From the NCBI RefSeq assembly GCF_003991155.1, contig NZ_CP031294.1: a stretch of DNA of 64,000 nucleotides. One strand, given 5' to 3'. Positions 26,155-27,946 of the stretch are shown piece by piece (the stretch's first letter is position 1; each line of letters starts with the position of its first letter). The DNA comes from Escherichia coli. GTDB taxonomy: Bacteria > Pseudomonadota > Gammaproteobacteria > Enterobacterales > Enterobacteriaceae. Both the position numbers and the translations under genes were made by a program. The notes under the pieces were generated by a model. The model worked only from the letters and a program-made list of their open reading frames with translations, did no database searches and was not told the origin of the DNA.

Positions 26155-26568
26155 TTAATGAGCTACAGCCTCACTGTTGCACATCTTTCTGTAGACCTGC
26201 TTATAACGCTGTAAGTCATGAGGATCATTAGGTGCCAACGACTTCGATAGGATTTTGTATACCACCCCTTTCGAAAACATGCCCTTTGGCTTCATTTCGA
26301 GTTCAACAACATATGAGTGATAGCCCACGTATGCACCAAAGCCATTTTTGGCGTTCAATTCTCCGCACACAAAGCCTGTCACACTCCCATCGTCATGATC
26401 AGTCCTGACAAACTTATCTTTCCTAAACATCACCGACGTGGGATCTTTCATATCATCCGCAATTGCTTGTTGGCCCAGAGCAATAGCCTTCTCGTCTGTA
26501 GGCTTACACCCCACTAAAGCAAACAAAGACAATAAAGCTCCTGTTAAAATCAGCTTATTTTTGCTCAT
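26155..26568 (-). CDS. Putative lipoprotein
   Basis: Signal peptide and lipobox (LFALVGCK). Confidence 0.5.
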   Translation of the reverse strand: MSKNKLILTGALLSLFALVGCKPTDEKAIALGQQAIADDMKDPTSVMFRKDKFVRTDHDDGSVTGFVCGELNAKNGFGAYVGYHSYVVELEMKPKGMFSKGVVYKILSKSLAPNDPHDLQRYKQVYRKMCNSEAVAH

Positions 26569-26800
26569 GTTGGCTTCCCTTTATTTATATTTATCGCAGG
26601 TATTAGTTAATCAAAACACGAGCAGTGCCACAATAATTAAATGGCGTACTATTTCTTATGGTTATTAGTTTCCCAGTAACTTTACCGACCATAAACTAAA
26701 TCAACAAAGCTGACATATTAACTAAATTTAAGTACCCTTTTTCGCACACTTGACGCTTGCCGCGTCTAAACTGTTCATCCTATATCAACAGAAAAAAAAC

Positions 26801-27946
26801 ATGAAATACATAAAATCTTCATCGTTGCTGGCATTAACTTTGCTTTTTAACTCTGGATTCGTTAACGCAGACAATAAACAAACGCTGATAGAAGCCGCTA
26901 CCGCAGGGGATACCGCAGCACAAAGTGAGTTAGGTACAAATTATTTTGATGGTGTCAATGGTTTTGATAAGGATGTAGTTGAGGCCAAGAAGTGGATTGA
27001 TCTAGCTGCAGAAAAGGGAGATAAAGTAGCATATTATGCACTTGGAGTTATGTACACATTTGGCGAGGGTGTAGATAAAGACCTAAATAAAGCTGTTGAG
27101 TACTACAAACTTGCGGGGGATGCTCGTGAAGGTAGAGCCTACAACAATCTTGGTGCTATTTATCAAAAGGGGATGCTTGGTAAAGTAGATCATGCACTCG
27201 CCATAAAATACTTCAAACTAGCCTCTGATGCCGGGTATGTTAAAGCAACTTCAGTTCTTGGGGCGTATTACCTATATGGTAAAGGCGTTAAAAAGAATTA
27301 TAAAAAGGCTTTTACTTATTACAAAAAGGCGGCAGACCAAGGCAGTTCAGAAGCTATGATAGGATTAGGAATACTATACGATGATGGGTTAGGCGTTAAA
27401 CGCAATGATGCAGAAGCAGTTAAGTGGTATAAAAAGGCAGCGGAACTTGGAAACGCCGACGCCATAACCAATCTTGGCATTATGTATGAGAATGGGGAAG
27501 GTGTAAAAAAGGACTATAAAAAAGCAGCCGACCTTTATCAGACTGCTTGCGATAAAGGAGAAAAAAGAGGCTGCGATTACATTGCAGAACTGAAAGAAAG
27601 CGGCAAATATCGAGCGCCGGCTTCCAAAGCCAAAACAAAATCCGCCACCCAGCGACTTATTGCTAAATCCATTGATAAGGGCGTTAACGCTACATTTACC
27701 TGGCAGGGTGATGATGCTACCTTCACCGCTAATGATGGCAAAGTTGACTGCACCTTCCTGAAGGATTTTTCAGAGAAAGGAGGCAATCTGGCTACCTCGT
27801 TTGTTTGCACCGATAACGTTCAAATCATCCTGAAGCAATTCAGAGATACCAAGAATGCCTACCTCGCGGTAATGACTGACAACTTCAATACAGAAGTTAA
27901 ATCATTTTCGGTCAATGTGTATGTGACTAATACTGGTTCAAACTAG
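26801..27946 (+). CDS. Secreted Sel1-like repeat (SLR/TPR-like) protein
   Basis: Signal peptide MKYIKSSSLLALTLLFNSGFVNA, then at least six ~36-aa repeats of the pattern A..W..KAA..G...A...LG..Y..G.GV..D. The longest ORF starts at 26750; 26801 is chosen as the likelier start. Confidence 0.6.
   Translation: MKYIKSSSLLALTLLFNSGFVNADNKQTLIEAATAGDTAAQSELGTNYFDGVNGFDKDVVEAKKWIDLAAEKGDKVAYYALGVMYTFGEGVDKDLNKAVEYYKLAGDAREGRAYNNLGAIYQKGMLGKVDHALAIKYFKLASDAGYVKATSVLGAYYLYGKGVKKNYKKAFTYYKKAADQGSSEAMIGLGILYDDGLGVKRNDAEAVKWYKKAAELGNADAITNLGIMYENGEGVKKDYKKAADLYQTACDKGEKRGCDYIAELKESGKYRAPASKAKTKSATQRLIAKSIDKGVNATFTWQGDDATFTANDGKVDCTFLKDFSEKGGNLATSFVCTDNVQIILKQFRDTKNAYLAVMTDNFNTEVKSFSVNVYVTNTGSN

Follow-up and report, generated by a model that had tools for sequence, protein, structure and literature searches.

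The window analysed here, a stretch of 64,000 nucleotides from Escherichia coli, is an SSU5-type phage-plasmid, and the identity of both the window and its backbone was established. SSU5-type phage-plasmids are common in clinical Enterobacteriaceae and known carriers of resistance genes. The locus of interest is a cargo slot at 26.1-27.95 kb, bounded by the primase gene and by a conserved hypothetical gene (25253-26029) and located among replication genes, with the ligase on one side and primase/helicase on the other. It contains two genes that diverge across a 232-bp spacer, a Sel1 gene on the plus strand and a lipoprotein gene on the minus strand. A previous sequence-only reading of the window had recognized that the Sel1 gene interrupts the minus-strand replication block and that a lipoprotein gene is its neighbor, and our analysis agrees on both points; position 26155, with which the span given in that reading starts, is the 3' end of the lipoprotein gene and not the Sel1 start. 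The slot comprises the following features:

26095..26154, minus strand: left boundary of the module; in the alignment with phage Cyrano, homology to relatives without the cassette stops near 26095
26123-26146, minus strand: GC-rich hairpin, 9 nt 3' of the lipoprotein stop codon, terminator-like with a weak U-tract
26155-26568, minus strand: lipoprotein gene, 137 aa, family phrog_2320
26569..26800, no strand assigned: divergent spacer of 232 bp, GC 0.345, conserved among cassette variants
26801-27946, plus strand: Sel1 gene, 381 aa, with signal peptide, six Sel1 repeats, linker and eight-strand all-beta C-terminal domain
26801..26869, plus strand: signal peptide of Sec type predicted for the Sel1 protein, covering residues 1-23 and cleaved behind VNA
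26870..27598, plus strand: Sel1 repeat region, residues 24-266, six Sel1-like repeats and a capping helix, predicted superhelix
27150..27650, plus strand: hypervariable recombinant patch, roughly repeats 4-6, capping helix and linker
27599..27649, plus strand: linker, residues 267-283, rich in Lys, Ala and Ser, of low confidence (pLDDT <50 at residues 275-282)
27650..27946, plus strand: C-terminal domain (CTD), residues 284-381 and stop codon, eight consecutive beta strands with the invariant pair C317-C336
27938..27946, no strand assigned: 3' ends of the Sel1 and primase genes, overlapping by 9 nt (Sel1 stop TAG at 27944-27946, primase stop TGA, as reverse complement, at 27938-27940)
27938..27985, minus strand: end of the primase gene, the last ~15 codons, which travel with the Sel1 gene

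The Sel1 open reading frame spans positions 26750-27946 (+) from a TTG codon, but the real start is the ATG at 26801, as in the RefSeq CDS WP_001755529.1. The PHROG profile match begins at residue 18 of the TTG-started frame, and the gene has no Shine-Dalgarno sequence. The N-terminus of the protein (MKYIKSSSLLALTLLFNSGFVNA, followed by DNKQ beyond the cleavage site) is composed of a basic n-region (MKYIK), a hydrophobic core (SSSLLALTLLF; hydropathy peak 1.86) and the stretch NSGFVNA in front of D, which ends in the V-N-A cleavage motif. This composition corresponds to a type I Sec signal peptide, a prediction made by a manual rule check by eye, and the cleavage-site pattern is retained in all Sel1 orthologues (VNA, AHA, AVA or SHA). 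The signal peptide proposed from the letters of the window is thereby supported, as are the Sel1 repeats, for which the profile search with Pfam Sel1 (PF08238) reported six repeats and a score of 178.2 bits (cut-off 30.7; E=1.1e-53). Repeats above the gathering score and the helix-turn-helix superhelix stacking of the predicted fold assign the protein to the Sel1-like repeat family (TPR clan), and the orthologues contain 5-7 such repeats. Two cysteine pairs, 250/258 at the last repeat and 317/336, the latter with both residues invariant, fit an oxidising compartment.

The repeat array is in part a patchwork produced by recombination. Alleles differ by up to ~45% within the patch 27150..27650, while its flanks are 95-100% identical, and the number of repeats varies by whole units of 36 aa, which results in alleles of 345, 381 or 417 aa. 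Since the dN/dS ratio of the patch is as low as ~0.1-0.2, it looks like imported divergence and not like positive selection. For the Sel1 gene and the lipoprotein gene dN/dS amounts to 0.04-0.22, which is indicative of purifying selection and shows that both are more than chance ORFs.

The 98-aa CTD, modeled with a pLDDT of ~80, is nearly identical among the E. coli alleles. Pfam contains no family for this domain, a search with it returned only DUF3617 at E=0.16, and its fold matched none to which it could be assigned. It is a near-orphan, with 8 clusters retrieved by an exhaustive search among 1.84 billion (1.84e9) protein representatives, and represents a previously undescribed beta domain that is found almost only in the Sel1-CTD family. 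Single-sequence word-indexed protein searches gave 4 matches each, and the family sizes reported here rest on the profile search and the exhaustive search. The Sel1-CTD family is confined to mobile elements. Its distant homologues were found on two short contigs (2.3 and 1.4 kb), immediately 5' of a gene for a ColE2-type replicase, which suggests that small plasmids may carry them.

The lipoprotein begins with MSKNK and a hydrophobic core, followed by the lipobox LVGC at residues 18-21; its cysteine (Cys21) is the one expected of a lipoprotein and is kept in the homologues. In E. coli the +2 rule sets the sorting of lipoproteins between the two membranes. Because a lysine occupies position +2 relative to Cys21, the protein is predicted from its sequence to be sorted to the outer membrane and tethered at the inner face. 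The mature domain has a predicted helix and a four-strand cystatin/NTF2-like fold. The phrog_2320 family is large and unnamed (at least 1179 clusters), and its members mostly lack a Sel1 neighbor. Relatives in prophages occupy classic cargo positions, namely between ogr and int in the P2-like SEN4/5, between the tail genes K and I in Fraca and in Pseudomonas AUS531phi, and, in prophages of Salmonella and Citrobacter, immediately 5' of the tape-measure gene. Some homologues are fused to SPOR or PG_binding_1 domains (Pseudomonas, Paracoccus and Acinetobacter phages). Neither the lipoprotein nor the CTD nor the other occupants of the slot could be placed in a functional family by sequence searches against PADLOC, NCBIfam and the PDB.

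The backbone is present in 251 complete E. coli genomes (~4.6% of the complete genomes of this species), 54 of which carry the lipoprotein/Sel1 pair. The remaining ~78% of the backbones are without it, and most of them have an empty slot of ~70 bp. The cassette was never found on a chromosome (5426 genomes), and it is missing from the phages Cyrano, CMS-2020a, PhiR41_1 and SSU5. Ubiquitous core genes with a replication role, the outcome against which the sequence-only reading had staked its proposal, would not be distributed in this manner. In relatives the same slot harbors the Sel1 gene alone (L006, L016), the lipoprotein gene alone (L007, L008) or unrelated genes, i.e. SSU5_041, a Klebsiella gene of 388 aa, a pHCM2 gene of 350 aa and umuDC in Buttiauxella. 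The slot thus holds two independent modules, and it is a swap-prone recombination hot spot for general cargo. A transposon-like insertion was considered and rejected: flanking repeats are absent, and at the right junction identity is reduced over a zone within the primase gene, which together point to the homologous exchange of a variable segment. A literature search found nothing on this cassette. The two independent modules, the role of the slot as a cargo hot spot and the undescribed C-terminal beta domain had all passed without remark in the sequence-only reading.

The convergent overlap with the 3' end of the primase gene, which that reading had estimated at ~9 nt, was recovered in every relative examined (L006, L012-L016) and leaves no room for a terminator after the Sel1 gene. 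The C-terminus of the primase covaries with the presence of the Sel1 gene, ending in LELLSKVKGIAALV with it and in LELQSKVLGIKAL plus S, L or V without it, which places the right recombination junction inside the primase gene. At the other end of the module, the hairpin behind the lipoprotein gene has a calculated RNA fold of -22.3 kcal/mol (z=-2.64) and was not called by the consensus terminator scan. The spacer, with a mean column identity of 93% and 90 nearly invariant nucleotides 5' of the Sel1 start, presumably holds the promoters of both genes; the consensus promoter scan detected no sigma-70 site in it, and inspection by eye no convincing sigma-E-like site. The base composition of the module differs modestly from its surroundings, with a GC content of 0.416 (Sel1 gene), 0.435 (lipoprotein gene) and 0.345 (spacer) versus 0.483 for primase and helicase, and a GC3 of 0.374 versus 0.465-0.499.

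The pair is very probably exported accessory cargo that is unrelated to replication. The best overall explanation, which we favor by a modest degree, is a moron-type two-gene cargo island that brings about an envelope lysogenic conversion of the host in the carrier state, most plausibly as protection against superinfecting phages. The Sel1 gene had previously been proposed as a lysogenic-conversion factor; the accessory status documented here agrees with this proposal, and lysogenic conversion is possibly the right category. The Sel1 protein would reach the periplasm via Sec, with further release as a possibility. The six repeats would provide a superhelical protein-binding scaffold, connected by the flexible linker to the disulfide-stabilised eight-strand beta domain. 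Both genes would be expressed during plasmid carriage, each from a promoter of its own within the common spacer, and the envelope of the carrier cell would be the site of action of both proteins. Allele-specific binding to an envelope protein or to a protein of an incoming phage may reside in the variable half of the array of repeats, and the invariant CTD may contribute an anchoring or effector contact that stays constant. As no terminator separates the convergent Sel1 and primase genes, expression of the former and the transcription of primase/helicase are predicted to interfere mutually, which would fit a carrier-state Sel1 gene on the assumption that the primase/helicase genes serve lytic replication.

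Phage exclusion or resistance as the actual function is a tentative proposal. A search of PADLOC-DB 2.0 gave no meaningful match, with a weak PtuA hit for the Sel1 protein (E=1.7e-5) in which no stretch was significant alone and none for the lipoprotein, and neither protein matched defence, virulence or receptor-blocking families. The cassette is unlinked to the tail-fibre allele, and empty slots occur in plasmids whose fibres are 98% identical, which speaks against a block of the receptor that the element's own fibre uses. In its most far-reaching form, which we regard as speculative and rather unlikely, the Sel1-CTD protein would be a novel periplasmic protection factor of mobile elements whose variable array recognises a phage or host envelope protein and whose orphan beta domain serves as constant effector or anchor; the primase-proximal slot would then be a hot spot for cargo that acts in defence or exclusion at the envelope, and the phrog_2320 lipoprotein would be another such case, independent of the first.

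Exported Sel1 proteins are known from host interaction as well. EsiB (c5321) of E. coli is reported to bind secretory IgA, and LpnE of Legionella is another Sel1 protein reported to interact with the host. The Sel1 protein of the cassette might accordingly be a released host-interaction or colonisation factor that binds a eukaryotic target and is of use to the bacterium in the gut and not against phages. We consider this unlikely, as the similarity to relatives of the EsiB/LpnE type is the generic Sel1 consensus (~30% identity across the repeats) and the CTD is absent from these known proteins. Moreover, the restriction of the family to mobile elements and the origin of the carriers, which show no association with pathotype or host species and include isolates from river water, wastewater and soil, argue against it.

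A regulatory role in the envelope is quite improbable. One or both proteins could regulate the envelope machinery of the host, as inhibitor or scaffold of a peptidoglycan hydrolase or as binder of a two-component sensor, and thereby alter the wall, capsule, biofilm or lysis timing. The Legionella Sel1 protein EnhC acts with Slt, and ExoR, likewise a Sel1 protein, binds a two-component system at its periplasmic sensor domain. The SPOR and PG_binding_1 fusions would place the lipoprotein domain at the peptidoglycan layer, its fold resembles that of the cystatin inhibitors, the Sel1 protein has sub-threshold NCBIfam matches to ExoR, AlgK and MotX, all of them periplasmic Sel1 proteins, and ActH, a TPR activator of an amidase, is among the fold neighbors. 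However, every match is generic or below the family cut-off, no enzyme partner was identified, and the fusions are confined to distant homologues.

The adjacent divergent position of the two genes, their conserved shared spacer and their co-occurrence in the 54 E. coli genomes would suit a single obligate machine of two proteins, in which the lipoprotein anchors the repeat scaffold in the manner of AlgK or the Lpo-type complexes. This is highly improbable and largely refuted already by the distribution, since each gene occurs alone at the slot of natural, apparently intact elements, the huge lipoprotein family mostly does without a Sel1 neighbor, and the distant Sel1-CTD homologues have no lipoprotein neighbor on the short contigs seen. 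A part in the phage replication or lytic programme, e.g. as primase/helicase accessory factor, is suggested by the position between ligase and primase/helicase and by the overlap with the primase 3' end, but it is hardly tenable and already contradicted by the export signals on both proteins, the opposite strand of the Sel1 gene and the absence of the genes from the functional same-group phages Cyrano and SSU5 and from most E. coli backbones.

As it stands, the result is accessory cargo with one orphan domain, an annotation without a new mechanism. An exchangeable-cargo site of SSU5-type elements and the exported envelope proteins within its cargo are an aid to reading what such elements carry as accessory genes. 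Should one or the other protein block phage entry, an envelope-level exclusion factor would be added, and if a phenotype is obtained in a test, it would be the first function for the phrog_2320 family found within prophage tail modules.

The closest known counterparts of the Sel1 protein are the exported Sel1-like repeat (SLR) proteins EsiB/c5321 (PDB 4bwr), LpnE (6deh), HcpC/HcpB (1ouv, 1klx) and the Oxalobacter SLR proteins (6ok3), none of which has the eight-strand CTD. The Helicobacter Hcp proteins contain a disulfide in every repeat, whereas the protein described here has a single cysteine pair (C250/C258) at the last repeat, and it deviates from the all-SLR architecture of EsiB by the additional 98-aa beta domain. 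In contrast to these exported proteins, it is encoded only on phage-plasmids or, in the case of the distant copies, beside ColE2-type replicase genes on short contigs. The periplasmic Sel1/TPR scaffolds ExoR, AlgK, MotX and EnhC share the periplasmic location, which is predicted here, and the Sel1 repeat scaffold. Their domain architecture is different, no association with alginate, flagellar or ExoS-type genes is seen in the genomic context, and the NCBIfam scores for ExoR, AlgK and MotX (35-78 bits) stay far below the equivalog cut-offs of 330-700.

The exclusion lipoproteins Llp of T5, Cor of phi80/N15/HK022 and Ltp of Streptococcus TP-J34 are likewise small phage lipoproteins facing the periplasm or surface, and homologues of the lipoprotein described here sit inside tail-gene modules. 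Searches against Pfam, NCBIfam and the PDB recovered no characterised exclusion lipoprotein of similar sequence, and together with PHROGs, only families of unknown function; the fold is a predicted helix with a four-strand sheet. In its organization the cassette resembles the phage morons of lambdoid and P2-like prophages, such as bor and lom of lambda and old/tin/fun of P2. A moron by definition has its own promoter and terminator; in the spacer here the consensus scan found no sigma-70 site, the hairpin after the lipoprotein gene has a weak U-tract, and the Sel1 gene, given the primase overlap, cannot have a terminator of its own. Like the morons, the two genes are optional, occupy a fixed site between conserved genes with presence/absence polymorphism, have a lower GC content than their flanks, albeit modestly so, and encode envelope-targeted products.

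The slot between the conserved hypothetical gene and the primase gene of the SSU5-type phage-plasmid backbone is occupied by two genes that diverge across a 232-bp spacer:

25253-26029, conserved hypothetical gene
26155-26568, minus strand, lipoprotein gene (RefSeq: 'hypothetical protein')
26801-27946, plus strand, Sel1-repeat gene (RefSeq: 'tetratricopeptide repeat protein')
27938-29191, minus strand, primase ORF

Our analysis documents two exported proteins that are optional, independent of each other and confined to mobile elements, that evolve under purifying selection (dN/dS 0.04-0.22 for both genes) and that occupy a slot with varied cargo.

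The plus-strand Sel1-repeat gene proposed in the sequence-only reading is real. The true start of its ORF is the ATG at 26801 (381 aa), in agreement with the RefSeq CDS and with the 380-position profile of PHROG 8741, which begins to align at residue 18 of the TTG-started ORF. Scoring 178 bits where the Pfam cut-off is 30.7, the repeat profile detects six Sel1 repeats, and the N-terminus MKYIKSSSLLALTLLFNSGFVNA/DNKQ contains all three regions of a Sec signal peptide, a pattern that is retained across orthologues despite sequence differences and agrees with the predicted secretion. The stops of the Sel1 gene (27944-27946) and of the primase on the other strand (27938-27940) generate the anticipated 3' overlap of 9 nt, which is identical in every relative examined. 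Gene, lipoprotein neighbour and overlap thus lie where that reading had placed them, but its starting point 26155 marks the 3' end of the lipoprotein gene, which diverges from the Sel1 gene. The AlphaFold model of the Sel1 protein (mean pLDDT 85.5) comprises four parts:

N-terminal signal peptide
six helix pairs with a capping helix
residues 267-283, disordered linker
residues 284-377, eight consecutive beta strands (pLDDT ~80)

Judged by profile and predicted fold, the repeat part belongs to the Sel1-like repeat family; an Hcp-type identity was rejected, because a disulfide in each repeat is lacking. E. coli alleles encode 345, 381 or 417 aa, with length steps of whole 36-aa repeats. Their divergence is focused on 27150-27650, a stretch that covers roughly repeats 4-6 plus the linker, with identities of 52-68% to pTLYA-2 and 81-88% to pECOH89, compared with 94-100% for the lipoprotein gene, the C-terminal domain and the primase and 81-99% for the spacer. 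Since dN/dS in the divergent part is ~0.1-0.2, this variation seems to reflect divergent alleles acquired by import, not positive selection.

The C-terminal beta domain (CTD, residues 284-381) is almost an orphan. No Pfam family was found for it, and HMMER, run exhaustively over 1.84 billion cluster representatives, recovered eight clusters, including a chance match to an Ig-like repeat protein. The cysteines C317 and C336 do not vary. Two short contigs (2.3 and 1.4 kb) each carry a distant homologue, with 34-46% identity in the domain, that is immediately followed by a ColE2-type replicase gene (PF03090), which suggests carriage on small plasmids. In one distant homologue beside a ColE2-type replicase gene, on a Logan contig (SRR28820041, L011 1-647), the Sel1 part runs into a stop codon and the CTD is called as a separate 91-aa ORF, through a frameshift or a natural split of the gene. 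The 86 PLSDB records of this Sel1-CTD family are all large (about 70-120 kb) non-mobilizable plasmids from Escherichia, Enterobacter and Citrobacter, plus one record from an uncultured bacterium; Klebsiella and Salmonella are absent.

The neighbouring gene encodes, as had been proposed, a predicted lipoprotein; it has 137 aa, the lipobox LVGC and Lys at +2. It matches phrog_2320 (E=1.9e-39), a PHROG without assigned function, and no family in Pfam, NCBIfam, PADLOC or PDB; in the viral structure library it matches only phage proteins without a name, one of which carries a lipoprotein annotation. A profile search returned at least 1179 clusters, all unnamed. Homologues with available context occupy cargo positions in temperate phages:

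P2-like SEN4/SEN5, between ogr and int
Fraca and Pseudomonas AUS531phi, between tail genes K and I
Salmonella and Citrobacter prophages, immediately upstream of the tape-measure gene

The cassette region is 100% identical, at the same coordinates, in plasmid P2 of E. coli isolate 162 (NZ_OW849379.1, 110,667 bp, circular). The relatives are the SSU5-type phage-plasmids, namely phages Cyrano, CMS-2020a, PhiR41_1 and SSU5 and plasmid pECOH89, and the RefSeq gene order runs from repA through a long minus-strand replication and recombination block to the tail and head genes. Of a 5.6-kb query comprising the cassette and its surroundings, just 66% aligned with Cyrano, CMS-2020a and PhiR41_1, at 95% identity, and with SSU5 the match was confined to primase and helicase (47%); in Cyrano ~75 bp separate the conserved hypothetical gene from the primase. 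The backbone is present in 251 of 5426 complete E. coli genomes and the full cassette in 54 of these 251, most others having the empty slot (span 1968-1974 bp); the cassette interior was found exclusively on plasmids (chromosomal: 0). The Sel1 gene occurs without the lipoprotein gene in E. hormaechei p4-20710 and E. coli C6 p1, and the reverse applies to Cronobacter pCS1 and E. hormaechei pHD8642-1. Other elements harbor unrelated occupants:

SSU5 (L009 3523-4488), SSU5_041, 321 aa, convergent with the primase
Klebsiella plasmids (L017 4662-5828), 388-aa gene, convergent with the primase
S. Typhi pHCM2 (L018 4618-5670), 350-aa gene, convergent with the primase
Buttiauxella plasmid (L019 4785-7415), umuDC and two small orphans

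The orphans among them had no match in Pfam or PADLOC. Single-gene carriers and unrelated occupants identify the slot as a hot spot for cargo and the two genes as separable modules, not parts of a single system. The right junction lies within the primase gene, whose last ~15 codons end in LELLSKVKGIAALV and the stop with the Sel1 gene, and in LELQSKVLGIKAL, one of S, L or V, and the stop without it. This Sel1-dependent 3' end indicates that the module is exchanged by homologous recombination, not transposition. The GC content of the cassette is somewhat below that of its flanks. Within the matched span, an IS1B (NZ_CP056962.1, E. fergusonii) and an IS100 (NZ_CP035843.1, E. coli TW10722) interrupt or flank the cassette, so the cargo can be inactivated while the element persists.

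Where the primase gene starts is ambiguous: its ORF reaches GTG 29191 (417 aa), RefSeq starts at 29053 (371 aa), and annotations in related plasmids give lengths of 1116, 1182 or 1185 nt. Between the recombinase and ligase genes, RefSeq annotates a YafO-family toxin gene, together with a partner upstream of it, and a four-tRNA cluster (Ser, Thr, Tyr, Asn) (18621-19031 and 21251-21808, minus strand). Tail fibre and tail tip genes span 37432-42600, including the highest-GC kilobase of the window (0.59, 40001-41000). Part of this segment matches 4121 of the 5426 genomes, mostly on chromosomes, and the phage-plasmid thus has a fibre module in common with frequent chromosomal prophages. Three further low-GC genes deserve mention:

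31504-33207, minus strand, KAP-family P-loop NTPase, 567 aa (PADLOC PDC-S49 4.9e-22, Pfam KAP_NTPase 1.6e-5, phrog_4740)
8453-9043, plus strand, GC patch of 0.35, weak YfbR-like match only (E=0.0045)
20164-21072, plus strand, GC patch of 0.29

The NTPase gene, two genes away from the primase/helicase pair, lies in a very low-GC island (0.29 at 32001-33000 versus ~0.46 in the backbone) and is probably another cargo or defence gene, PDC-S49 being a PADLOC candidate defence family. The other two, without significant Pfam match and among the few plus-strand genes of a mostly minus-strand genome, look like further inserted cargo.

Cassette variants share a conserved 232-bp spacer, in which a consensus scan detected no sigma-70 promoter; a plausible Shine-Dalgarno sequence precedes the lipoprotein gene, and none the Sel1 gene, whose leader is A-rich. 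A stable hairpin with a weak U-tract follows the lipoprotein gene (-22.3 kcal/mol, z=-2.6), and the RNA antisense to the primase downstream of the Sel1 stop folds well without a U-tract. Autonomous transcription of the predicted units is plausible.

Both genes would be active in the carrier state, with the envelope as the site of action of their products. The role that we favour, tentatively, is protection against superinfection, because members of the lipoprotein family recur within the tail modules of prophages and close to attachment sites, the Sel1-CTD gene is also found beside ColE2-type replicase genes on short contigs, and the layout of variable recognition and constant domain resembles specificity modules. 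Counting against it, the cassette is unlinked to the tail-fibre allele, as plasmids with 98% identical fibres have empty slots; neither protein gave a meaningful match to known families of defence proteins (PADLOC) or exclusion proteins (Pfam, NCBIfam, PDB). An EsiB/LpnE-type host-interaction factor is unlikely: the repeat part is similar to LpnE, EsiB/c5321, HcpC and Oxalobacter Sel1 proteins, but the architecture differs from that of EsiB. We consider a regulator of peptidoglycan enzymes or envelope sensors slightly less probable still; a few clusters of the lipoprotein family contain a SPOR domain (profile search), and tblastn revealed peptidoglycan-binding fusion partners of its homologues. 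An obligate complex of both proteins is very improbable and contradicted by their separate distribution. A replication role is hardly credible given export signals and optional presence, and a ubiquitous core gene is incompatible with a cassette in 54 of 251 backbones.

We found no papers discussing either gene, and the novelty is descriptive: the orphan CTD, the allele structure, the slot and the placement of the lipoprotein family. Among known systems, the cassette fits the phage moron concept in distribution and composition; any promoter and terminator of its own would be putative.
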